DNA from: an uncultured Muribaculaceae bacterium
GTDB lineage: Bacteria > Bacillota_I > Bacilli_A > RF39 > UBA660
Direction of reading: 5' to 3'
DNA: 64,000 nt
Assembly (NCBI GenBank): GCA_964397485.1
Contig: CAYNHT010000001.1
Coordinates: forward strand, 273,190-337,189
Shown here: in pieces, positions 6,175-59,236 of the stretch
Layout: each line of letters begins with the position of its first letter
Position numbering within the stretch: position 1 is the first letter of the stretch
Translations under genes and position numbers: made by a program
The notes under the pieces: generated by a model
The model's database searches: none
What the model was told of the DNA's origin: nothing
Seen by the model: only the letters and a program-made list of their open reading frames with translations

Positions 6175-6357
6175 CTATCTAAATTTCTTAACTTTACTTA
6201 AACTACGCTTTTCACAGTGTACAATCATTTTATTATACGGAATAAATGTCTCTATTTTAAAAATTCTATCAACTGCATAATACTTATTTGTTCCTGCTAA
6301 TTGCTTCTTTAGTTCAATTAATTCTGATAAGGATTTGTTTTCTAAATTTACGTACAT
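6175..6357 (-). CDS. Stand-alone TGS-domain fragment, corresponding to the detached N-terminus of ThrRS.
   Basis: 'LKKQLAGTNKYYAVDR' matches the TGS 'LKKKALAGKLNGELVD'. It is in frame with thrS but separated from it by 36 nt containing two TAG stops. Its own RBS 'aaggagga' lies directly after the T-box terminator. Confidence 0.5.
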   Translation of the reverse strand: MYVNLENKSLSELIELKKQLAGTNKYYAVDRIFKIETFIPYNKMIVHCEKRSLSKVKKFR

Positions 6358-45963: not shown

Positions 45964-46370
45964 TCCAGACTAATTTCTATATAAATTATACCACATTTTG
46001 TGGTTTTTTTAATGCATTTTAGAAAATTTCACACTGCATCTCTATAACAAACTTGGGCTTTTTTCTAGAATATATTTTGTTTTTTGTAAATGACACTGAA
46101 TAGTGCTAATTATTTGTTTTATAACGATATAGATAAAACAAAAAAAAGAGCTTGTAAAACAAATAAAGATATATTCTTCTCATTGATTTTATAATAAAAA
46201 TTATTGCCGAGTAAAATCACGACACTATCCCAAAAAATTAAAAAGAGTTTTAATTAAAAAAATTATAATACAATTTATTTATTAAGAAAACATTACAACG
46301 AGTTGATTGCTTTATTCATATTCTATACAATAAAGTACTTCAAATATAAAATATTAAAATGTGTTTTTTA

Positions 46371-46461
46371 ATACAAAAAAGATTACAATTTTTTGCAATC
46401 CTTCTAATTTCATATTTGGTGCCATTATAGAATTCAGCCCTATGACTCACTTATTAAGAGT
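46371..46461. repeat. Island-boundary module copy 1: A-run/hairpin/T-run terminator plus a degenerate tRNA-Lys 3'-half copy (46427-46461).
   Basis: 'aaaaaagattacaattttttgcaatccttctaatttcatatttggtgccattatagaattcagccctatgactcacttattaagagtg'. Confidence 0.55.
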
Positions 46462-46966: not shown

Positions 46967-47410
46967 TTATTTTTTTGAACTCAAAATTGATAATCTGACA
47001 ATGAGAGTTAAAAGCATTAATTGAAATAGAAACGTAAATATATATATTGATTCTCGCAAAATTAATAAAGAATCTTTAAGCTCTGACGGAATTTTTATGT
47101 CAAAATTAAAGACACCTAGTAAAAACACGAGGAATGTAAATTTAACCATATTATTAAAATACATTAGAAACACTTCATACAAATCCGATTTAAAGTTATA
47201 AAATTTTGTTATCAAAGGTTTGGCTGTTATTCTAAAAGTTATTAAGAATGGAGTCATTATTAATATAAATTCAAAAATTGTATCTAAATCAACTGAAAAG
47301 AAACTCATAAAATTATCACTTACGCTAAAAATAAGCGACAAAATAAAACTAACAAAAATATATTTATATACACCTGTCACTTTATACATTTTTTCTAAAA
47401 CTTTATGCAT
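46967..47410 (-). CDS. Small polytopic membrane protein (partner of the upstream 277-aa protein).
   Basis: Four TM helices. The start overlaps the stop of the upstream gene. Confidence 0.45.
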   Translation of the reverse strand: MHKVLEKMYKVTGVYKYIFVSFILSLIFSVSDNFMSFFSVDLDTIFEFILIMTPFLITFRITAKPLITKFYNFKSDLYEVFLMYFNNMVKFTFLVFLLGVFNFDIKIPSELKDSLLILRESIYIFTFLFQLMLLTLIVRLSILSSKK

Positions 47411-48236
47411 ATGCACCACCTTTTGCATGTGCAACGTCACTTAAATTATCAATAATCATTTCACTACCATGAGAAGTAATTTCAACATTTAAAATAATAT
47501 CATCCGCCGTTTCATCTATAATGTTAATCATTTTTGTCTGCTCCTTACCACCACGAGCATATTTACAATTTACTCTAAGTTTTTTCAAGTTATTTGTTTC
47601 TTGGTGTAAATCAACAAGAGTTTTTAATAATGCTTTTTTTGAGTTTCCAGTAGAATCTCCAGAAAACCATCTACTATTGATTGTAAAATTACATTCTTCT
47701 GCTTCAAAAAAATTAAGAGTACTATTAATGCCTTTTACTATATTTTCGAAAGATGGTTCGTCAAAGTCACAATTAATTTTTTTTGAGTTAATTTCCATTG
47801 AAATTATTTCTGAACTTTCAAGAAATGGAATTCTTGCCATATCAGACAAGTCTTGCGCAAATGAAAATGTAATATCAGGTCCAAATACTTTATTAAGAGT
47901 TCTTTCCATAGCTTTGATTTTAACGCCAGCATGATTATATTCCATAAAAGCCTCTATTCTATCCGGCCTTCTAACCAATAACACTGTTGATAATTCTGCT
48001 ACTTTTTCATTTATTTCTCTATAATCATTTCCATAAACAGGTTTTATTTCACGATCATATGCAAATTGTATTAGCATATCACGATCTTTTTCTTCAAATT
48101 TATTTATTATAACTCCCCCATTATTATAGTAGTTAACGTTACGTTCTTCCTGCTCCTTTCCAAATATACTTCTCAAATTAATGAAACTTTCTCCTTCAAG
48201 CGCAAGTATATACTTTTTTATTCTTAAACTAGCCAT
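47403..48236 (-). CDS. Hypothetical cytoplasmic protein (277 aa).
   Basis: No recognisable motif. Co-oriented and overlapping with the downstream TM protein. Confidence 0.5.
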   Translation of the reverse strand: MASLRIKKYILALEGESFINLRSIFGKEQEERNVNYYNNGGVIINKFEEKDRDMLIQFAYDREIKPVYGNDYREINEKVAELSTVLLVRRPDRIEAFMEYNHAGVKIKAMERTLNKVFGPDITFSFAQDLSDMARIPFLESSEIISMEINSKKINCDFDEPSFENIVKGINSTLNFFEAEECNFTINSRWFSGDSTGNSKKALLKTLVDLHQETNNLKKLRVNCKYARGGKEQTKMINIIDETADDIILNVEITSHGSEMIIDNLSDVAHAKGGAYA

Positions 48237-48470
48237 AAGTCACCTCCTTTCTTACTATATCACTTTGTCCATTTTTACACATGACTACAAACAGTAAACA
48301 CTAAACAAAAAAGCAGCACAAATTAAACCTAATCGGTTTACTGTACTGCTTAACCAAATACATTATACCACTTACTTTCAAGATTTGTCCCTTTTTATCA
48401 CAAAATATCTTATTTCATTATAACTTTTTTTATATTTTTCCGACAAAAGTCCAATTTTGCTATTTCGAAC

Positions 48471-48540
48471 ATAAAAAAAAGATTGTGAATCCTCACAATT
48501 TTTTAATTTCATATTTGTACGTATAATCTACGTATTTTTT
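48471..48540. repeat. Island-boundary module copy 2 (terminator hairpin without a tRNA fragment).
   Basis: 'aaaaaaaagattgtgaatcctcacaattttttaatttcatatttg' plus a second hairpin 'tacgtataatctacgta' and a T-run. Confidence 0.5.
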
Positions 48541-48616: not shown

Positions 48617-49798
48617 TTAAAGGGTGTCATTCCAATAATCAATAACGAACCTATTTACCTCTTTAATTTTTTTCTTGCTTTCCTTGTTTTTAAAATTATA
48701 ATGAAATTTTGGTAAAACATTTTCTCTAACTTCTAGTTTAAACTTCCAACCATCTTCATATTTTCTAGGAAAGTTATCTAGTTTAGTTCTATCATATTTT
48801 GATATTTTTTCTGCTCTGCTAATAAGTCTAGTAAAAGAAAAATTATATTTAAAAGGATGATTTGTCTCATGGTGATGGACTATTTGATTTGTTGGAACGC
48901 CTAATGTCTTTGGAATAAATTGAGCGAAATATTTAGTTCTTTCTTTTTTACATGTACAAAATAATTTTTGTATTTCGTCTGAAGTAATTTCATCATTAAA
49001 TAAAACTAGATTTCTTGAAGATACTACTTGAAACATATTAAGCCATTTTACTTCAGTATCATTATTAATGTTTATTATTTGCTTATTATTGTTTCTAGGA
49101 TACATCTTTTTATCATATAAGATTATAAGTTTAGTTGGTGAAACCGGGAAAAATATTACAATTCCAATTGAAGTCAAACCAACATTGTAAATGCAAAAAT
49201 TATTATAATGTATTATTGGATTGTCACTTGTTATAAGTTTGCTCTTACAAGTATAATTTATTATTAGCAGTTCTAAATCTACAATATATTTCCCCAATTC
49301 TTTATCAGCTAATTCTAAACACATCTCTGGAATTTTATTTAATTTTTCTTTTAAAAAGACGTCTTTGATTTTTTGTTTTTCGCTATCACTTAAACTATCA
49401 AATTTATTTCCATATTTCATTTGAACAGCAACATCAATTGTCTTCCAAGCCATTTCTTTAACTTGTGTTACTCTGGTAAGTGTTCTGTTTTTTTGAAATA
49501 GTATAAACTGCTTTATTTTATTTATTTCATTAATGGTGGGGTAATAAATAGTATTGCCATTAATTTTATTTAATACGCTAGCCCATTCTCCTTCCAAACT
49601 CGATAATTTTCTTTCCCAAATTTCATCTGTTCCATAATAATAATTTTCGTAACATTGGTTCATGTATGGAACATTACTTATTATTTTTTCATTTGAAATA
49701 TTTAGGATACTAATTTGCTTTTTATAATTTGAAAAATATTTTAAATAGAATTGTGGAACATAATGTTGCTTTTTTCTTTTGTTCGACAATTTTACCAC
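48617..49798 (-). CDS. DUF4238-like protein.
   Basis: N-terminal 'HYVPQFYLKYF' resembles the DUF4238 signature. 393 aa. Confidence 0.4.
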   Translation of the reverse strand: MVKLSNKRKKQHYVPQFYLKYFSNYKKQISILNISNEKIISNVPYMNQCYENYYYGTDEIWERKLSSLEGEWASVLNKINGNTIYYPTINEINKIKQFILFQKNRTLTRVTQVKEMAWKTIDVAVQMKYGNKFDSLSDSEKQKIKDVFLKEKLNKIPEMCLELADKELGKYIVDLELLIINYTCKSKLITSDNPIIHYNNFCIYNVGLTSIGIVIFFPVSPTKLIILYDKKMYPRNNNKQIININNDTEVKWLNMFQVVSSRNLVLFNDEITSDEIQKLFCTCKKERTKYFAQFIPKTLGVPTNQIVHHHETNHPFKYNFSFTRLISRAEKISKYDRTKLDNFPRKYEDGWKFKLEVRENVLPKFHYNFKNKESKKKIKEVNRFVIDYWNDTL

Positions 49799-50040: not shown

Positions 50041-50125
50041 AAAAAAAGATTGTGATTTCTCACAATCCCTTATATTCATTGGTGTCCCGTATAGGATTCG
50101 AACCTATGACCCACTGATTAAGAGT
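50041..50125. repeat. Island-boundary module copy 3: terminator hairpin plus a well-preserved tRNA-Lys 3' half (50080-50125).
   Basis: 'aaaaaaagattgtgatttctcacaatc' then 'tggtgtcccgtataggattcgaacctatgacccactgattaagagt'. The reverse complement has an intact T-arm and acceptor strand. Confidence 0.7.
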
Positions 50126-50350
50126 TTTAAAAGGCACTTATTATGGTTTAGTATATAGTCATAAAAAATACTATATACTAACAATTATCAATGATAGTCA
50201 CAACACAAAATAATATATTTTATTATTTATTGATATATATTAGTCCGATTTAAGTCCGACTTATTATAAAAATAGTATCCAGGGGGTATCACTTCAAAAC
50301 AAATAATTTAGAATAAATGTTACTAGTGTAGTAGGATAATCGGCACCCAC

Positions 50351-51445
50351 TCAAAAATCATTTAGGCATTGTTGTGATTTTAATATATCATTTTCAAGTA
50401 AAACCAAAATATTATTAAGAGCTGTTTCAATTTTAATTTTATAATCGTTATCACTAAAGCTGAACTCTTGTTGAATTAAACCTAAAAACATTAATTTGTT
50501 ATTATAGTATCTTTCGTTGATACTATTTTTCATATCATAATGAAACATACAGTTCCTAAAGTTTCTATTTTTAAAATATTGTTGTCCTTTTATCAAGTCT
50601 TTATATTTTTTAATATCAAATGGGCAATTAACAAATATTTCATTATCACACATTTTAGAAATATCACTATGGATGGTGTCCCATATAATATAAGCAAGTC
50701 TATACCTTAATGTTGATTTGCTAGGTAGTGTATTACAAATTATTACTTGATAATAGTTAATTTTACATATCATATCTAATAGGCTTAAACCTATATTAAC
50801 ATCAATGTCATTTTTAAATAAACCATTACTATTTTTTGTTGTATTGAAATCTTTATATTTTACTAGAAAAGAATTAATATCGATATTGTCATTTTGTTCA
50901 ACAGAAAAGCATTTCATTAAAGCACTTAATACTTGTCCCTGTTCTTTTCCAAAATCAAATAAATGTTGATTTAATTCTTCTTTGTTTTTCAAAAGGGGCT
51001 TATATAATGTAGCGAATAGAAATGTGTTTCCTATCGGTTTAACATCAATGTAGTATACACCTAAATTATCTACTAAATCTTTTAAAAACCTATGTTCCTT
51101 TATAAATGAACTCATATTAATAAAATCTTCATGTGTTTGTTCATTTAATGTATTTATTTTTTCATATCTTTTTTCAAATGGTAATTCATCACTTTTAGTA
51201 CGACCTCTAATGGATTTAATGGCTTTTTTATACCTTAATTCTTTTCTTAATTCAACATTGTAATTTTCTTCTATATAATCAATTATTCCTAAATTTAATA
51301 AGTTTAAGTAATTAAACCAAAACATTGAAATAACAGCATTTTGGGTTTTAGAAATTGTAATGCACATTTTATAAATATCTTTAAGTTCTTCTTTAATAAG
51401 GATGTTAGTATTATCAGTTATATCAATTGTAAGTTCTATTTCCAT
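50351..51445 (-). CDS. Hypothetical protein with a C-terminal R-N-x-x-x-H (HEPN-like) motif.
   Basis: 364 aa; 'FRNCMFH'. Second gene of a two-gene operon. Confidence 0.5.
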   Translation of the reverse strand: MEIELTIDITDNTNILIKEELKDIYKMCITISKTQNAVISMFWFNYLNLLNLGIIDYIEENYNVELRKELRYKKAIKSIRGRTKSDELPFEKRYEKINTLNEQTHEDFINMSSFIKEHRFLKDLVDNLGVYYIDVKPIGNTFLFATLYKPLLKNKEELNQHLFDFGKEQGQVLSALMKCFSVEQNDNIDINSFLVKYKDFNTTKNSNGLFKNDIDVNIGLSLLDMICKINYYQVIICNTLPSKSTLRYRLAYIIWDTIHSDISKMCDNEIFVNCPFDIKKYKDLIKGQQYFKNRNFRNCMFHYDMKNSINERYYNNKLMFLGLIQQEFSFSDNDYKIKIETALNNILVLLENDILKSQQCLNDF

Positions 51446-51499
51446 TAAATTCCCCCTTAATTATTTTAAATATGTTAGTTTTAATTTGTATATACAAAA

Positions 51500-52750
51500 T
51501 TATTTTATATGCTTTTTATCATAATATAAATTATAATTTAATCGTTCCTTAATAGTCTTTTGTGAAACACCAATTTTATTATATAAATAACCAAGAAGTA
51601 AATCTTCTAAAAAATATGAAAACCTAAATAGTTCATCATTTTCCATCTTCTTTAATGGTTGAGAATGGTGATTAAAATAATTCCTACCATCAGCAATTTT
51701 TCTTGATATAGTGTGTATCCTTGTCTTTTTAAATCCCCATATATAATTCAGATTTTTAATCATACTTTCAATTCTATCTGAAAGAGTTATACCAAAACCA
51801 GGTTTTCCATTATCAATCCAAACTTGTTTTGCATTAACATTGTCATATTCTTTTGACATATATTCTATTATTTGATTACAATTTAAAAATCTATTCATTC
51901 TTGATGTTTCTTTTTCTATCATATCTAAGTAAATATCAAATATTGGAGTTATATCTTTAAAAACAACTAAAAATTGTTCATATATAAGTTTAAAATCATT
52001 TTCCAAATCTTCTAATGTCAATACAAATTGTTCATATTCATGTTGTAAAAATTCGTTTTTGTAATCTTTATCTTCAAAGTAAGTTAAATTCATAAACAAA
52101 ATATTATTATCATTTATTTTAATTTCTTTAATTCCAATTATTCTTTTTGAAATTATTCCTATAAAACATTTTAAAGCCCATACATCTTGTATTGTGTTTT
52201 GTAATGTCTGTTTGTTCCTATATTCGATTGTAAAACTCACTCTTTTTTTACATTTATATATTGAGTGTCCATGTGTTGTCAAATTTCCTATAAGTATTGT
52301 AAGTTTATAATCATTAAAATTAAATTCGTTATGTTTATACTTAAATATTGGATTCAAATTTTCGCCATAGTCATAAAAAGGACTTATTGAAAAATTTTCT
52401 AAATCATAGTATTCAAAATTAATTGATTTAATCTTTTTGTTCTTTTTAGAAGTATATTTCATTCCTTCAACAAACATATCAATCTTAAAAGTCATTGAAA
52501 ATAATTCAGTTGCTCCATTTGCAGAACTAGAACTACTTACTAAGTTAAAAAATGTAATGTTCCTACCTTCAATTTTTCCATTTACAATTGGAAATGAGTT
52601 TTTTAGTTTTAAATATGTATCTCTGTCAACACCATCTATTAATTGAAGTATTAATTGATTATTTTTATTTACTAATAAAGCCGAATATTCTTTATTTAAT
52701 AATGATATTTTAAGATTATTATTGTTATATTTTTCTAATAATTCATTCAT
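51500..52750 (-). CDS. Hypothetical protein with a C-terminal R-N-x-x-x-H (HEPN-like) motif.
   Basis: 416 aa; 'GRNYFNHH'. First gene of the operon, 55 nt upstream of the 364-aa gene. Confidence 0.5.
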   Translation of the reverse strand: MNELLEKYNNNNLKISLLNKEYSALLVNKNNQLILQLIDGVDRDTYLKLKNSFPIVNGKIEGRNITFFNLVSSSSSANGATELFSMTFKIDMFVEGMKYTSKKNKKIKSINFEYYDLENFSISPFYDYGENLNPIFKYKHNEFNFNDYKLTILIGNLTTHGHSIYKCKKRVSFTIEYRNKQTLQNTIQDVWALKCFIGIISKRIIGIKEIKINDNNILFMNLTYFEDKDYKNEFLQHEYEQFVLTLEDLENDFKLIYEQFLVVFKDITPIFDIYLDMIEKETSRMNRFLNCNQIIEYMSKEYDNVNAKQVWIDNGKPGFGITLSDRIESMIKNLNYIWGFKKTRIHTISRKIADGRNYFNHHSQPLKKMENDELFRFSYFLEDLLLGYLYNKIGVSQKTIKERLNYNLYYDKKHIK

Positions 52751-52884
52751 AAATAATCACCCTATAAATATTATAACATACATTGTAAAGTTCATTTACC
52801 TATTACTTTACATTTTAATAAAAACCACCTATATTTTCACACACTCAATAAAAAAAATAGCATGACAACAAAAGCAAAAAATCA

Positions 52885-53094
52885 CTATTTTATTATAGTG
52901 ATTAAATCTCCAGGTTCGCAATTTAAATGATTACAAAATTCTATTATGTATTTAAACGAAATCGATTTTGTTTCTCCTCTAATAATTTTGTTTAAATTTC
53001 TTGAAGTAATATTCATTTGTTGACATAACCAATATTTTGTTTTTCCATTTTTTTCTAATAATTCAACTATATTTAATTTTATCATTACCAACAC
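52885..53094 (-). CDS. XRE/Cro-type HTH regulator.
   Basis: 'TKYWLCQQMNITSRNLNKIIRGE' is an HTH_3 motif. Confidence 0.6.
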   Translation of the reverse strand: MLVMIKLNIVELLEKNGKTKYWLCQQMNITSRNLNKIIRGETKSISFKYIIEFCNHLNCEPGDLITIIK

Positions 53095-53192
53095 TTCCTT
53101 ATAGAAATATTGTAACTGTAATACAATTTATAAATAAGATACTTGCATTACCCTTATTTTTAGAATATAATATAAATGGAAGGAGAGTAAAA

Positions 53193-53642
53193 ATGAAAAT
53201 ATTAAAATACCTAATGATTTGTTTTAGTGTTTTATTTGTCTTAACAGGCTGCACTAATAATAAAAAAGAAGTAATTACTTTAAATAAAGACAACATAGAA
53301 AAATATTTTATTATTACAAATAGTATTGATGATTATTCTGTTGATACAAGCAGAACAATTGTTGGAAATACTTATAGAGGATATGCTACACTAAAAATTA
53401 CTTTAAAACCTAAATACACCATTTCTGTTAATGATGTTGTTATTAAAGGTGAAGTAAAATTGTCAGAAGTTGTATGGTCATCTTCATATAATCCTATGGT
53501 TTCATTTGAAATTCAGCTTGATAAAGATGGGAATGGAGAATATACTAAAAACTTAACTGCTTCTCAAAGTATTATTAGACCAGAAAAGCCAAGTGTTTAT
53601 GAAATAAATTTTACTGAAATAAGTGGAAGTATTGAGAAATAA
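53193..53642 (+). CDS. Lipoprotein of unknown function.
   Basis: RBS 'ggaaggagag'. 'MKILKYLMICFSVLFVLTGC' is a lipobox. Confidence 0.55.
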   Translation: MKILKYLMICFSVLFVLTGCTNNKKEVITLNKDNIEKYFIITNSIDDYSVDTSRTIVGNTYRGYATLKITLKPKYTISVNDVVIKGEVKLSEVVWSSSYNPMVSFEIQLDKDGNGEYTKNLTASQSIIRPEKPSVYEINFTEISGSIEK

Positions 53643-53803
53643 TAAAACATTAAAAAGTTACTAAAATAACTTTTTTTATTTGTTATGCCTTTTAACAAGT
53701 GATTGATGCAACCAAGTAATATGATAAACTAAAATAAAAAACAAAAGAAAGTTAATCAAATTAACCTTCTTTTTCAGATTTCAGACAGTCAGATTATGTA
53801 CCC

Positions 53804-54859
53804 TTAGTCTGAACTTCTGATTTCTGAATCCCTTATATATTCTTCTTTCAATTCCCAATTCCAACATTTATTTTTCTGAAAAGGTTTTTTGCAAACTATT
53901 TTCCTTGCTTTTTCAATAGATAATCTTTCAAAGCCACTTATATCTGCATTATCTAATATCTCTTTCATAGGTGCAGTATGATTATTAATAGAAGATAGAT
54001 AATCTACTAACCATTGTTTAGCATTTATCGTTGTAGAGTCGTTATCATAGGTAAATAAGCCGTCTATATTTAATGGTTCTCTTTCTTCAAGCCATGCAAT
54101 ACCTTTATCAGTTATTTCAAAAACATATTCCTTTAGGTTCTGTTCACTCGAATAATTACCCTTGATAGGACATAATAACCTTTGTTTTTCATTATCAGGG
54201 TTTCTTGTAATGCCTAAAACAACTCTAGCAGCTGAAGCAAATCCAGCCGAACCCATAGTTTTATATAGTGCTTTAGTATTACTTTTATTCATGTGCATTA
54301 CCCCAATAATAGCGATTTCAAAGTATCTAGCAATTAAACTTAATGGAGTTAATATATCATACACTTGTTTATATTTATCAATGTCAGTTCCATTCATATA
54401 ACTTGTTAAAGGGTCAATAACAATTAGTTTTGGTTGTATCTCGATAATCTTATCTATCAAATTATTTATATCACTTAAATCCAGCCCATTTTCTATACTA
54501 CTATCAATGTAGAAAACATTATTTACATCAGCACCACTATCCTCCAATCTATAAATTGTTATCTGTTCTGGGTCATCTTCAAGATTTTGAAATAATATCT
54601 TTTGTGGTTCTAATACTTGGCTATCAAAAGGAAACGATATACCATTAGATAATCTTGAAGTTATATCACATGTAACAAAACTCTTTCCAAGTCCTGCATC
54701 ACCGATTAATAGGGTTAGATACCCTATTGGTATTTTGCCATTCCACAACCATTTTAACTCCTTCTTTTGAACATTAGCAAAGCATTTAATAACTTGCTCT
54801 TTTTTCAATAAATCTTCTTTAATTTTCTTTTTTATTTCTTCACTAGTTAATTTTTCCAT
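53804..54859 (-). CDS. RecA-fold AAA ATPase (RepA/AAA_25-like replication protein of mobile elements).
   Basis: Walker A 'GDAGLGKSF', Walker B 'LIVIDPLTSY'. RBS 'aaggaga'. Confidence 0.6.
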   Translation of the reverse strand: MEKLTSEEIKKKIKEDLLKKEQVIKCFANVQKKELKWLWNGKIPIGYLTLLIGDAGLGKSFVTCDITSRLSNGISFPFDSQVLEPQKILFQNLEDDPEQITIYRLEDSGADVNNVFYIDSSIENGLDLSDINNLIDKIIEIQPKLIVIDPLTSYMNGTDIDKYKQVYDILTPLSLIARYFEIAIIGVMHMNKSNTKALYKTMGSAGFASAARVVLGITRNPDNEKQRLLCPIKGNYSSEQNLKEYVFEITDKGIAWLEEREPLNIDGLFTYDNDSTTINAKQWLVDYLSSINNHTAPMKEILDNADISGFERLSIEKARKIVCKKPFQKNKCWNWELKEEYIRDSEIRSSD

Positions 54860-54864
54860 TTCAA

Positions 54865-55053
54865 TTATTCTCCTTTATTTCTATTTTCTTTTAACCAATT
54901 TTCTATGTCTTGTTTATCAAACATAATCTTTTTACCAATTCTAAAATATGGTATTTCGCTAGAACGAATTAACTTTCTAACAAATGCTTCACTAATATGT
55001 AAATAGATAGCAACTTCTTTTACATTAAAAACATCTCTAGCCAATATCGGCAC
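54865..55053 (-). CDS. Excisionase-like small HTH (HTH_17) protein; the true start is probably the TTG at 55042-55044.
   Basis: 'VKEVAIYLHISEAFVRKLIRSSEIPYFRIGKKIMFDKQDIENWL' is the Xis/MerR-like pattern. Confidence 0.6.
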   Translation of the reverse strand: MPILARDVFNVKEVAIYLHISEAFVRKLIRSSEIPYFRIGKKIMFDKQDIENWLKENRNKGE

Positions 55054-55320
55054 CTCCTAACTGTATTCTTGCATTTTTTTAGTTACACTCTTGGCAACAA
55101 GCATACTCATTTTATACTAGAGGCAATTGCTTGTTCAAGCAATTTTAGTGAGGTTTTTCAATTGCTTTTGATTGTGTCGTTAATAAAAATTATTAACTTT
55201 TTTAGTGTCCAATTGTCTATTTTAATTTTTATTTAAAATACTATTGACATCTTGTCCAACTGTGTGCGATACTGTCATCAGAACACACAAGTGGAGTTCA
55301 AAAGAAAGGAAGTTAAAGTT

Positions 55321-56031
55321 ATGTCAACCAATACAAACAAAGTAAATCTAAAGTATCAATTATTTGCAGATAGGCTTATAGAATTAAGGAATGAAAGAAA
55401 ATTGACCCAAGATGAAGTATCAAAAGGAATAGGAATTAGTAAATCTTCAATTCAAAAGTATGAAGGTATGACACGATTTCCACAAGGTTACGACTTAATA
55501 GAAATAGCCAATTTCTTTGAAGTATCAGTTGAATATTTACTTGGTAAAAGTGAATATAAAAAAAACCAATACACTAGTCTAAGTGAACTTGGTTTGAATG
55601 ATAGAGCAATAGATACTTTAATAAAAATGAAACAAGAAGTTTATAAAAATGGCAAGTTGGATTATAAACCCTATATGTTCTTAAATGCTCTAAATTTACT
55701 GCTTGATATAGATAACAAAAGATATATTTATAAGATAGGTAAAATGCTAATTCAAAAAAGAGCTGAAGACCAATTTAAAAAGCGAAACAACGAAGAATTA
55801 GAAACATATCAATATAACTTGTTTAGATTAAACAATATGTTTGATAGATTTTTTAAAGAAAATTACGATAAAGTCGATTGTAGTTTCATTAATGAAATAG
55901 AAAGCGAAAAAGAAATAAAAAATTTCTTAACACAAGTTAATATATTAGATAATGATATGGTAAAAAATTGGCAAGATTACTTATTAACACCAATACAAAA
56001 AAAATTACTTGAAAATAAAGATAGTGAATAA
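55321..56031 (+). CDS. cI-like XRE HTH repressor with a C-terminal extension.
   Basis: 'KLTQDEVSKGIGISKSSIQKYEGMTRFPQGYDLIEIANFFEVSVEYLLG'. Divergent from the xis-like gene. Confidence 0.65.
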   Translation: MSTNTNKVNLKYQLFADRLIELRNERKLTQDEVSKGIGISKSSIQKYEGMTRFPQGYDLIEIANFFEVSVEYLLGKSEYKKNQYTSLSELGLNDRAIDTLIKMKQEVYKNGKLDYKPYMFLNALNLLLDIDNKRYIYKIGKMLIQKRAEDQFKKRNNEELETYQYNLFRLNNMFDRFFKENYDKVDCSFINEIESEKEIKNFLTQVNILDNDMVKNWQDYLLTPIQKKLLENKDSE

Positions 56032-56036
56032 AAAAA

Positions 56037-56097
56037 CTCTCTTGCTACTAACAAGAGAGAGAGTCACACAAAAACTTGGACAGCCTTTGTGTGACTC
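56037..56097 (+). terminator. Two tandem hairpins between the repressor and the integrase. They lack a strong T-run, so they may be a terminator or a regulatory structure.
   Basis: 'ctctcttgctactaacaagagagag' and 'gagtcacacaaaaacttggacagcctttgtgtgactc'. Confidence 0.35.
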
Positions 56098-56146
56098 CAT
56101 TATAACAGATTATTTAGAAAAATAAAAGAAATGGAGAAAAAATAAA

Positions 56147-57280
56147 ATGAGTGTTAAATTAATTGATAAAAATAAATATATGATTGAAGCCTTTATCGGT
56201 TATGATAGTAAAGGCAAAAAAATAAGACAATATAAAACTTTCAATGGTACAGAAAGACAAGCAAAAGTTATGGAAAACGAAATGATACAAAAGTATAAAA
56301 ACCAAGTTCTTAATGATATTGATTATACAAAAATCACTTTTGAAGAATTAAGCAAAATTTATATGGAAAGACATGCTAAAAATCTAGCCCCTACAACCTA
56401 TATAGGTTATTCGAAAATGTTAGAAGTTATAAATGATAATTTTGGCAAAAGAAAGTTAACCAATTTAAACCCTTTAATACTAGAAGATTTTTATTGTAAA
56501 TTAAGAGAAAGGCGACAACCTAAAAAACTAACTGAAAATACAATATTACATTATTATGTTTTAATTGGTGCAATACTTAATAAAGCCAAAAGATGGAAGA
56601 TAATAAGCGATAACCCAAATGAAGCAATTGATAGACCTAAAAAGGAAAAGAAAGAATCCAAATATTACAATGTTGAAGAAACCAAGCAGTTGTTAAAAGC
56701 ATTAGAATGTGAACCTTTAAAATATCAGACTTTAATTAGATTAGCAATTGATAGTGGTGCTAGAGTTGGTGAAATATTAGGATTAGAATGGGACGATATT
56801 AATTTTAATTTGGGTTATATTAGTATTAATAAAGTTATATATGCAATTAAGGGTGGAGTTAGAGAAAAAGACAAACCAAAAAATAATAGTTCTATAAGAC
56901 CAATAACATTAATGGAAGAAACTTTAGATTTATTAAAACAATTTAAAGAACAACAAGAAGAAACAAAAATTAAATTAGGTATAAAATGGTTAGGTTGCAA
57001 AAAAGTATTTACTTCCGAAGAAGGTTGGTATATGCACCCTTGCACACCTAGACATATTCTAGGAAAGATAATTAATAAATATGATTTACCAAAAATCAAT
57101 TTTCATTCTTTAAGGCATACTTCGGCATCATTGCAGATAGCATTAGGCATTCACATGAAAATCATTAGTAAAAGACTTGGTCACAGTAGCAGTAGCACCA
57201 CAGATATGATTTATAGCCATGTTTCAAGCACTCTGCAAAGCGAAGTAACTAATAAAATGGGGAAACTACTAAATAGTTAA
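56147..57280 (+). CDS. int: Tyrosine site-specific integrase.
   Basis: C-terminal 'HSLRHTSASLQIALGIHMKIISKRLGHSSSSTTDMIYSHV' carries the R..H..R..Y catalytic residues. An N-terminal SAM-like domain is present. Confidence 0.9.
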   Translation: MSVKLIDKNKYMIEAFIGYDSKGKKIRQYKTFNGTERQAKVMENEMIQKYKNQVLNDIDYTKITFEELSKIYMERHAKNLAPTTYIGYSKMLEVINDNFGKRKLTNLNPLILEDFYCKLRERRQPKKLTENTILHYYVLIGAILNKAKRWKIISDNPNEAIDRPKKEKKESKYYNVEETKQLLKALECEPLKYQTLIRLAIDSGARVGEILGLEWDDINFNLGYISINKVIYAIKGGVREKDKPKNNSSIRPITLMEETLDLLKQFKEQQEETKIKLGIKWLGCKKVFTSEEGWYMHPCTPRHILGKIINKYDLPKINFHSLRHTSASLQIALGIHMKIISKRLGHSSSSTTDMIYSHVSSTLQSEVTNKMGKLLNS

Positions 57281-57303
57281 AACAAAAGAAAATGGCTATC
57301 AGA

Positions 57304-58989
57304 TTAGCCATTTTTATTTTCGTTTTGTATTGCTATTGCAGTAATAAGTCCAAAATATAAAACTAGTAATTTTTCCACATTACCATAATTAAAATCTTTC
57401 ATTTTTAGATTTTTAAAATGTGCTAAATTATTTCTAATTCCCTCGCCTACTTCATTATCATCATTAATTAAATAAAACCTTAACAACTTTATATGATTAA
57501 TTCCTATAATATCATTTATTATAGAATTATCTTTATTCAATAAAACTCCCAAAGAAATAGAATTTTCGTTTATATACCCATTTTCATCGACCTTGCTTTT
57601 ATATATTAATCTCAATGATTTTTCAATCAAACCACATGTAAGCATTTCAATTGAATAAGCAATAGCACTTAATTGAATAGATAATTTTTGTTCTTTATCA
57701 CTTTTAATAATAGAAACATAAAGCAGAATAAGGTTAAATAACATTTCGTTATTTTCAATTATTTCATTTTCCACAAAATTAACAGTGTGATAATTGAATA
57801 CTTTGGTAAGTCTTCTAGTTACTTCAGAAAACAACATATTTGTGAGTTCATCATTATTTAAAATGTAATTTACTTTTAACATATGGTGTTGTAGTTCTAT
57901 ACCTAGAGTGGTCTGTATACTTGGTGTAAATAACTTGTTTGTTTTAACATTTGCAATAGAAACAAAATCAGTAATACTTGGTTTGCTATCTCTAACTAAT
58001 TGGTCAAAGAAATGAGTAAATGTTTTACCATCAGAGTAATTAGTTAAGTATACCAACATCTTTGCTGCTTTTGTTCCAATATCGGATTTTTCTATCATAT
58101 CAACATAACTTTTAATGTTTATTTCGTATGAAAATGATTGCCCATGATTTTGTAAATAATCATCAAGTAAATTGTTCTGTTCATCTAATTTAAATTGCCA
58201 TTCTTTTGCTTTTGAATGCTTTATTGTATCTAAAAATCGAAATAATTTAACAACATAACTTTGACTTATAATAGCATCCTCAACTTTTAAATCTTTCGTT
58301 TGTTCTTCAATATAATTTATGAGAAATGTAACTATTTCTTCAAATTTATTACTAAACCATGCTTGATTTTGTAAAGAAACTAATATATCAAATATATCTT
58401 CCAATCTAAATGTAACTAATTTATTTAATGTGTCATTTGAAAAGAACAGATCTGCTAAATCATTGTTTTCTTTTACAACATTGATAAATCTATCAAAACT
58501 GTCTATTAACAAATGAGAACAATGAGATATTAAGCATTTCCATGTATCTTTATCGATTCCACTTCTATACTTCAAACAATATGTAACAGTTTCAATTTTT
58601 ATATCAATATCATGATGAGTGACATCATCTTCGTATTCGCATATTATTTGAATATTATCATTAATGAAACTAAATATATCTTTTCGTTTATAGTTGTTTA
58701 AGATACCATTAAAAGTAGTAATTATATTACTAAACTCTTGTTTCATTTCATCTTTTACAATCTCAACATAAGTATCGTATTCAACTAATTTATACAAAAA
58801 AATATAATCGATATAGTTTTCTAAACTAGTTATGGAATAATCATTAATAGAGTTATAATAATTAATAATTATACTATTATTTTCTAGTAATTTTGTTATT
58901 TCAATTCCTGTTGCCCAATCATCATAAGTATATCTTCTTAACCCAATGTGTATTTTATTGTCATCTAATAATTTAAATATATTTCCCAT
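57304..58989 (-). CDS. Large hypothetical protein (561 aa) with a C-terminal R-N-x-x-x-H (HEPN-like) motif.
   Basis: 'EGIRNNLAHFKN' lies near the C-terminus. Positioned between int and tRNA-Lys. Confidence 0.5.
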   Translation of the reverse strand: MGNIFKLLDDNKIHIGLRRYTYDDWATGIEITKLLENNSIIINYYNSINDYSITSLENYIDYIFLYKLVEYDTYVEIVKDEMKQEFSNIITTFNGILNNYKRKDIFSFINDNIQIICEYEDDVTHHDIDIKIETVTYCLKYRSGIDKDTWKCLISHCSHLLIDSFDRFINVVKENNDLADLFFSNDTLNKLVTFRLEDIFDILVSLQNQAWFSNKFEEIVTFLINYIEEQTKDLKVEDAIISQSYVVKLFRFLDTIKHSKAKEWQFKLDEQNNLLDDYLQNHGQSFSYEINIKSYVDMIEKSDIGTKAAKMLVYLTNYSDGKTFTHFFDQLVRDSKPSITDFVSIANVKTNKLFTPSIQTTLGIELQHHMLKVNYILNNDELTNMLFSEVTRRLTKVFNYHTVNFVENEIIENNEMLFNLILLYVSIIKSDKEQKLSIQLSAIAYSIEMLTCGLIEKSLRLIYKSKVDENGYINENSISLGVLLNKDNSIINDIIGINHIKLLRFYLINDDNEVGEGIRNNLAHFKNLKMKDFNYGNVEKLLVLYFGLITAIAIQNENKNG

Positions 58990-59065
58990 TTTACACTTCC
59001 CTCGTTATTTAAATTATATCATAAAAAAAGAGTTTCTATTTTAGTAGAACTCTTTATATACATTT

Positions 59066-59141
59066 TGGTGTCCCCAGCAGGACTCGAACCTGCGACAATC
59101 TGATTAAGAGTCAGGAGCTCTACCAACTGAGCTATGGAGAC
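59066..59141 (-). tRNA. tRNA-Lys(CTT).
   Basis: Cloverleaf with anticodon loop 'ctcttaa' and T-arm gcagg/cctgc. CCA is encoded. Confidence 0.85.
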
Positions 59142-59186
59142 ATTTTGAAGAAAAATCACTAGTTTTTTACTCGGTTATCACTCGCC

Positions 59187-59226
59187 GATTAAGAGTCAGT
59201 TGCTCTACCAGCTGAGCTAACGAGAC
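59187..59226 (-). pseudogene. Orphan 5' half of a tRNA-Lys(CTT) (acceptor 5' strand through the anticodon loop).
   Basis: The reverse complement 'gtctcgttagctcagctggtagagcaactgactcttaatc' is complementary (acceptor and anticodon stems) to the 3'-half copy at 50080-50125. Confidence 0.65.
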
Positions 59227-59236
59227 ATATATTTAA

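Follow-up and report, generated by a model that had tools for sequence, protein, structure and literature searches.

Among the effectors of bacterial immunity, HEPN RNases rank with the commonest, and, to our knowledge, most HEPN families beyond Cas13, Csm6, PrrC, HepT, and ApeA are still unstudied. Here, we scrutinized a 64-kb window (the whole stretch of DNA analyzed, from contig CAYNHT010000001.1 of assembly GCA_964397485.1, with coordinates counted from its first letter) and an 8.9-kb integrative island within it that encodes three cargo proteins of 364, 416, and 561 residues, hereafter p364, p416, and p561. All three carry an R-N-x3-H motif near the C terminus. p416 is an ApeA-type HEPN protein, p561 is modeled as a HEPN domain joined to a large helical region, and p364 may represent a third, divergent HEPN-like protein. 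We consider it likely that the locus is a mobile island with RNA-targeting HEPN immunity cargo.

HEPN abortive-infection effectors on integrative islands are already known, and the p561 and p364 families are new variants. Among the described systems, ApeA is a single-protein abortive-infection system that acts as a tRNA anticodon-loop nuclease, and mutation of its catalytic Arg abolishes defense (bioRxiv 10.64898/2026.01.26.701840). It forms HEPN-mediated dimers that usually build decamers, a doughnut oligomer and a dinucleotide-binding pocket are described for it, and in the Ec2ApeA variant 5'-phosphorylated deoxydinucleotides act as the activator (bioRxiv 10.64898/2026.01.26.701840). A survey (Anantharaman et al. 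2013, PMC3710099) lists DUF4209 as C6orf70, a HEPN family in which Rx4-6H is conserved and the neighborhoods are of the restriction-modification type; in the literature searched, no paper other than this survey mentioned DUF4209. DUF4238, a family encoded next to the island, provides single-gene defense against T7 (PMC9122126).

An island in tRNA-Lys(CTT) and its three motif-bearing proteins

The ends of the island were set at 50126 and 59065 because a displaced copy of the tRNA-Lys 3' half and the intact tRNA-Lys gene bracket exactly that stretch (Table 1). The left repeat (D1) comprises 47 nt and is 79% identical to positions 59065-59111, and the blocks TTGGTGTCCC and CTGATTAAGAGT are identical between the half-repeat and the intact tRNA. 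Such a half-repeat pattern is the signature of tRNA-gene integration by an element carrying a variant tRNA 3' half of its own. The stretch is an integrase-bearing island within the 3' half of tRNA-Lys(CTT), its boundaries are confirmed, and it is presumably mobile. The same island was present on three metagenome contigs (L001-L003) in the same chromosomal setting, with ddl and murF-type genes beyond the tRNAs. The region belongs to a low-GC Bacilli genome and has a G+C content of ~22-29%. An initial annotation, made from the letters of the window, had given the island this same extent, and every gene that it listed was recovered in our map of open reading frames (ORFs) at the place it had assigned.

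In p364, the motif reads FRNCMFH (R297 and H302), in p416 GRNYFNH (R356 and H361), and in p561 IRNNLAH (R519 and H524), in every case within the last 70 residues. The window has 45 ORFs of 150 aa or more; 7 of them encode Rx4H and 3 encode RNx3H, these 3 being precisely the cargo proteins. When the proteins were shuffled with their composition preserved, the probability of RNx3H arising anywhere was 1.7%, 2.6%, and 3.1% per protein, and that of RNx3H within the last 100 residues was ~0.5% for each. The joint chance is ~1e-5 for the three motifs. The motif observation is confirmed and lies well outside what chance would give. One might argue for coincidence in an Asn-rich, AT-rich proteome, pointing to the Asn content of these proteins (~10%) and to Rx4H alone, which appeared in 14-26% of shuffles. 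Such a coincidence is vanishingly improbable given the restriction of RNx3H to the cargo among the long ORFs, its low shuffle probability in each protein, and its invariance among the homologs of each, and it is effectively refuted for p416 and p561, both of which were independently confirmed as HEPN.

The initial annotation had placed three Rx4H motifs with Asn at +1 near the C termini and put their chance occurrence at a few percent; the motifs lie where it placed them, the shuffles bear out its estimate, and the motif proved invariant in the relatives of each protein when conservation was checked. Its reading of all three proteins as HEPN is right for p416, on Pfam evidence, and for p561, on its fold and invariant motif. 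For p364, which had no profile match to a HEPN family, it is a candidate reading, and as a whole the reading may be called two-thirds proven.

The p561 family and the ApeA-like protein p416

The sequence of p561 had no match in Pfam, PADLOC, NCBIfam, PHROGs, or PDB sequences, the last searched with single sequences and with profiles. A word-indexed search gave a relative of 53% identity among the matches listed, and the same kind of search with a 110-sequence p561 profile gave just two proteins among the matches listed. The family was found by an exhaustive search of 1.84 billion representatives with a two-sequence profile, which returned 268 representatives at E<=1e-3, 81 of them at E<=1e-30, nearly all matched end to end over ~550 aa; the family thus measured comprises at least 268 clusters at 50% identity. 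Across 110 aligned relatives (18-53% identity), only G515, R519, N520, and H524 were invariant, followed by E456 (98%) and R460 (92%), all six being residues of the HEPN domain, and the family consensus reads G-x-N-x-R-N-x-L-A-H. A second conserved patch, comprising G283, T316-H317, D341, and F354-T355, lies in the N-terminal region.

The AlphaFold2 (AF2) model of p561 had a predicted local distance difference test (pLDDT) of 95.5 and a predicted TM-score (pTM) of 0.88, and within it the C-terminal domain adopts the four-helix up-and-down HEPN fold. The best structural match of this domain was the HepT toxin 7ae2_A, with 132 of 141 residues aligned and a score of 10.3. It was followed by HI0074 (1jog; 9.6), YutE (1ylm; 9.1), HepT (5yep_B; 9.0), AF0298 (2hsb; 8.2), AbiA (8oz7; 8.1), and the HEPN domain of sacsin (3o10; 7.9), with LsoA, RnlA, and Roquin further down the list. 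Full-length p561 compared with PDB and BFVD in Foldseek gave nothing significant, generic helical repeats only, and the part outside the HEPN domain had no significant match in PDB or among predicted viral structures. On the model, the C terminus of p561 is a true HEPN domain, joined to a helical region of ~430 aa that is specific to the family.

Pfam DUF4209 (PF13910) was matched weakly by 9 of 80 p561 relatives at E<=0.01 (best, 6.8e-6). In the relative P0142, the match fell on the motif-bearing C terminus (residues 472-548) and scored 19.1 bits against a gathering threshold of 22.3. Judged from these profile matches, p561 appears to be a distant relative of DUF4209 and not a member. The neighborhoods of p561 relatives differ from one another. 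On a short contig (L004 2471-5189), the 53% relative is followed by a 346-aa protein with a Cap4-type double-stranded DNA endonuclease domain, which in turn overlaps an unrelated 562-aa coiled-coil-like protein; no cyclase was visible on this contig. On a B. cereus conjugative plasmid, the p561 relative adjoins an unrelated 351-aa protein. A conserved partner gene for p561 was rejected on this account and, because the neighbors of its relatives differ, p561 looks autonomous. On the island, its position between int and the att site is the classic one for cargo.

In contrast to its designation as unknown in the initial annotation, p416 carries the Pfam domains of a characterized defense family. 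ApeA_NTD1 (1.9e-15; 57.6 bits against a gathering threshold of 25.5) is followed by HEPN_Apea (7.2e-10; 39.9 bits against 24.4; residues 320-398), and R356-H361 lies inside the HEPN_Apea match. Its PADLOC matches were confined to two models of the candidate family PDC-S58 (8e-21 and 1.7e-20). By its domain content, p416 is a bona fide ApeA-type HEPN protein, a compact and divergent member of a known family, and by homology to ApeA it would be an RNase that acts in abortive infection.

The p364 family and the predicted role of the cargo

The p364 gene lies 54 nt downstream of p416, and the two probably share one transcript. Homologs are rare, with nine loci found. Three came from a word-indexed search (99%, 72%, and 47% identity), two from species genomes (both 41%), and five from metagenomes (25-34%), and a Listeria monocytogenes homolog of 30% identity, with SFRNCMMHY, was found by tblastn without use of the motif in the search. 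Among nine aligned members, down to 21-23% identity, F296, R297, N298, C299, M300, H302, and Y303 were invariant, and no other invariant stretch in the family is as long as this FRNCM-x-HY block.

The relatives of p364 occur in varied settings. One overlaps the end of a protein of 468 aa whose HEPN_Apea match falls below threshold (9e-5, TRNYFAH), directly after tRNA-Lys(CTT) (L005), one stands alone and adjoins an integrase on an island where an AAA_25 gene is also found (L007), and others lie between a KAP NTPase and a protein kinase (L009/L010), after a WYL+WCX regulator (L015), near an integrase and tRNA-Met (L013), and at the edge of phage-homologous DNA or a prophage in Listeria (L017). 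At the level of gene order, this context supports a conflict-system role for p364. We also considered p364 as an obligate partner of ApeA and rejected this, as relatives are found alone (L007) or beside other genes (L009/L010, L015).

In the mechanism that we propose, infection would trigger RNA cleavage, leading to growth arrest of the infected cell. p416 would dimerize through its HEPN domain and, as a homolog of the E. coli ApeA proteins that have been studied, cut tRNA anticodon loops on infection and so halt translation, a role assigned because of its family membership. Dimerization of p561 would give a composite R-N-x3-H active site, and its large helical N-terminal region would keep the protein inactive or sense a trigger. 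An RNase activity of p561 and its place in abortive infection are predicted because of its fold, its invariant catalytic motif, its sensor-effector-like architecture, and its cargo position. p364 would most likely be a third, highly divergent HEPN-type RNase, or else an effector that uses the same motif, which its motif and context suggest. Genomic context likewise points to a defense function for both p561 and p364.

A number of results weigh against this reading. p416 had no match to the PADLOC ApeA model at E<=1, and it has only 416 aa, compared with longer E. coli ApeA proteins whose catalytic Arg is at 502 or 521. p561 itself had no match to PF13910 at E<=1, and it departs from its family with N at His317 (95% conserved), T at Asn550 (92%), and H at Ser326 (81%), although its HEPN motif residues are all intact and the substitutions at 317, 326, and 550 are at noncatalytic positions. 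A viral contig collection scanned for p364, p561, and the AAA_25 protein yielded no relatives. The remaining points concern p364. Neither this protein nor its relatives had a match in Pfam, PADLOC, NCBIfam, PHROG, or PDB, by sequence or by profile. Its AF2 model, built from four sequences, was unusable at a pLDDT of 42.8, with the motif region below 50. Several homologs from species genomes and metagenomes were retrieved with motif-based patterns, and the conservation of the motif is therefore partly circular; the word-based and Listeria matches are independent of it. Lastly, hhalign comparisons of the p364 family with the p561 and ApeA HEPN domains were nonsignificant (E 0.05-0.4).

It is possible, and has to be taken seriously, that p364 is not a HEPN RNase at all and that its FRNCM(F/M)HY block does something else, for example binding a ligand or forming a structural turn. 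In that case, p364 would be an accessory factor that senses, regulates, or inhibits, or else an unrelated effector that shares a short motif by chance. The missing sequence matches and a motif that falls in low-confidence coil of the AF2 model are as expected of such a protein, the hhalign comparisons with two genuine HEPN domains align little past the motif, the gene follows an ApeA-like HEPN gene directly at two loci, as a partner would, and other invariant blocks, among them NLGVYY..K.IGNTFL, R80, and K84, are distant from the motif. The hhalign result carries little weight, however. With p561, RN..H was in register and LRYRLAYI was paired with helix-1 LRLIY at E 0.05, yet the control, ApeA C terminus against p561 C terminus, both true HEPN, was also nonsignificant (E 0.008, probability 5%), and the comparison is therefore without power here. 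Moreover, no invariant block of the family is longer than the motif, which stands ~65 residues from the C terminus, as in p416 and p561, and relatives occur with no ApeA-like neighbor, by an integrase (L007) or after a WYL regulator (L015). On balance, we regard a HEPN-type RNase as a reasonably probable identity for p364.

A different role for the cargo would be to stabilize the island as addiction toxins or to target rival mobile elements, and not mainly to act in anti-phage abortive infection. HepT-like minimal HEPN proteins are the toxins of toxin-antitoxin pairs, among known structures p561 is matched best by HepT, and the HEPN genes are carried by a mobile island. We hold this role to be rather improbable, as the ORF map showed no antitoxin-like small gene (e.g., MNT) adjoining p561 or p364, and a tandem-repeat search and Rfam revealed no repeat-RNA antitoxin with either of them. 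Hence, a classical toxin-antitoxin arrangement is disfavored and autoinhibited single-chain effectors are favored. p561 and p364 are also large single chains with long N-terminal regions, like the sensor-effector ApeA, and the neighborhoods of their relatives (Cap4 nuclease, KAP NTPase, WYL regulator, and DUF4238) are typical of defense islands.

A bolder reading would make p364 and p561 functionally linked parts of one hitherto unrecognized multi-HEPN defense module, and not independent cargo. In the circularized island, p561 comes directly after p364 across attP on the same strand. Two metagenome-assembled genomes of other Bacillota/Bacilli (L009/L010) hold a diverged island with homologs of p364 (41%), the lipoprotein (33%), and p561 (29%). 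Its stretch L009 6458-16811 (also in L010) resembles a defense island and encodes, in this order, a KAP NTPase, the p364 homolog, a protein kinase with an overlapping 404-aa protein, the lipoprotein, the p561 homolog, and a DUF4238-like protein; the DUF4238-like gene starts 3 nt past the p561 homolog, and its product matches the DUF4238 protein of the window in pairwise BLASTP (2e-6). Four families (p364, lipoprotein, p561, and DUF4238) are thus shared with the tRNA-Lys locus described here, which common island ancestry and the general clustering of defense genes would also explain. We consider a functional link unlikely; were it real, members of different HEPN families would work together, e.g., as hetero-oligomers or as layered sensors and effectors. 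On a further contig (L013 4929-9230), three consecutive genes by an integrase and tRNA-Met each encode Rx4-6H near the C terminus, in a 354-aa protein (RKVRDNIH, Rx6H), a p364 homolog (RNCMFH), and a 650-aa protein (RNKYIH). Searches gave no support for placing the 650-aa protein in the p561 family (no match in hmmsearch; hhalign probability 8%).

Core genes, the tRNA-Lys locus, and comparison with known systems

Table 1. Coordinates of the island, its genes, and adjoining features in the 64-kb window (HTH, helix-turn-helix)
Feature	Coordinates	Strand	Remarks
277-aa and 157-aa ORFs	47403-48236 and 46967-47440		no assigned family; in one integrase-less remnant
DUF4238 gene	48617-49798		in the other integrase-less remnant, just outside the island
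Terminator hairpin	50044-50071		next to the displaced tRNA-Lys half, following 50079..50125 (-)
Displaced tRNA-Lys(CTT) 3' half	50079..50125	-	left-hand att repeat; acceptor end to anticodon loop
Integrative island, 8.9 kb	50126..59065		lies between the tRNA-Lys half-repeat and the intact tRNA
p364	50351..51445	-	rare family, invariant F-R-N-C-M-x-H-Y; candidate third HEPN-like protein
p416, ApeA-like HEPN RNase (predicted)	51500..52750	-	Pfam and PADLOC; R356/H361, predicted catalytic motif
Small Cro/C1-type HTH, 69 aa	52885..53094	-	Pfam HTH_26 2.8e-12
Lipoprotein, 149 aa	53193..53642	+	lipobox LTGC in the translation; weak lipoprotein family matches
AAA_25 / RecA-fold replication-type ATPase	53804..54859	-	Pfam AAA_25 5e-23; PHROG primase/helicase families
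HTH_17/Xis-like small DNA-binding protein	54865..55053	-	Pfam HTH_17 4.6e-14, Tn916-Xis 4.8e-4
HTH_3 (cI/RstR-like) repressor, 236 aa	55321..56031	+	Pfam HTH_3 6e-10; NCBIfam phage_RstR 5e-15
Tyrosine integrase (int)	56147..57280	+	Pfam Phage_integrase 1e-22 and SAM-like N-domain; PHROG_1 1e-69
Bidirectional terminator-like hairpin	57288..57315		separates int from p561
p561	57304..58989	-	C-terminal HEPN domain (predicted), ~437-560; N-terminal ~430 aa, all-helical array in the model
Intact tRNA-Lys(CTT)	59066..59141	-	integration target and right-hand att repeat; ARAGORN, Rfam tRNA 68.7 bits

The core genes of the island are arranged with int and the repressor on one strand and the small HTH and replication-type ATPase on the opposite strand, and the HTH_26 gene lies upstream of p416 and p364 on their strand (Table 1). 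The layout of integrase, repressor, divergent small HTH/Xis, and replication-type ATPase is similar to that of Gram-positive chromosomal islands and satellites. Compared with phage satellites such as the phage-inducible chromosomal islands (PICIs), the integrase, the repressor with its divergent small HTH/Xis, and the replication module are all present, but the island is without genes for the hijacking of helper packaging, such as one for a terminase small subunit (terS), for capsid size or capsid remodeling, or a cos/pac mimic. Every island ORF of at least 50 aa was accounted for, and no packaging-related gene was among them; the AAA_25 ATPase had no primase domain. In a phage collection, relatives of the ATPase with >80% coverage were only unannotated 4-13 kb fecal virome scaffolds and one Caudoviricetes contig. 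Identity to the small fecal virome scaffolds was 30%, and one scaffold also codes for a distant integrase. These matches offer a mere hint of satellite nature. Since there is no packaging ORF, no primase domain, and no relative on viral contigs, we refer to the locus as an integrative island with a satellite-like core, and its satellite status is unproven. The term phage-satellite-like used in the initial annotation hence fits the int/repressor/Xis/replication-ATPase layout, and does not extend to a packaging or capsid-redirecting gene or to viral-contig relatives.

Further repeats were noted at and around the locus. Just within the left end of the island, at 50242-50263, are two tandem 11-nt units (AGTCCGACTTA) that could be putative arm-type binding sites for the integrase or Xis. 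Outside it, a second, degenerate copy of the tRNA-Lys 3' half, of 74% identity, lies at 46415-46461. A context of terminator hairpin followed by ATTTCATATTTG occurs in three copies (~46370-46418, 48466-48517, and 50041-50080), which delimit two integrase-less remnants between 46370 and 50125. On the other side, a second tRNA-Lys-like 5' half without a matching 3' half is located at 59187-59228, between tRNA-Lys and tRNA-Val, and is 88% identical to 59102-59143; it may be the scar of an older integration or deletion. In the genome of the p364 relative that follows tRNA-Lys(CTT) (L005; GCA_003246125.1), ARAGORN called a tRNA-Asp with the unusual anticodon ATC at 6199-6283, just after tRNA-Lys(CTT); the call may be in error, or this may be a long-arm tRNA of a different type.

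p561 stands for a sizeable family that Pfam does not contain and PADLOC hardly covers. It has a confident structural model and a predicted catalytic tetrad of G515, R519, N520, and H524 (plus E456 and R460), and its large helical N-terminal region could be a new trigger sensor. p364 adds a rare family found repeatedly next to other HEPN and defense genes. Should the new readings fail, what remains is a correctly delimited defense-carrying island with an ApeA homolog, in itself ordinary.

With respect to known HEPN systems, p416 has both Pfam domains of ApeA (PF18862 and PF18739) in the same order, with R-N-x3-H in the HEPN_Apea part; unlike ApeA, which is a single protein, p416 is followed by p364. 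The p561 family has the conserved motif and conflict-system neighborhoods in common with DUF4209/C6orf70 (ERMARD), to which p561 relatives match weakly over a C-terminal region with G-x3-R-N-x2-A-H, whereas the helical N-terminal region is particular to the p561 family. HepT proteins (PDB 7AE2, 5YEP, and 8XDJ) comprise ~130-140 aa and form pairs with MNT antitoxins, by which they are AMPylated; p561 instead has 561 aa, is without an adjacent antitoxin gene, and is 12-15% identical to HepT.

As an element, the island is comparable to the P4/P2 defense hotspots (Rousset et al. 2022, PMC9122126) and to PICI-type islands, being likewise a small int-bearing island at a tRNA gene, and, like them, it holds defense-type genes in cargo slots at both of its ends. 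In these Bacilli, the tRNA-Lys(CTT) locus seems to act as a serial integration hotspot where defense genes build up, and the gene that adjoins the island is a DUF4238 gene, of the kind validated in the P4/P2 study (PMC9122126).

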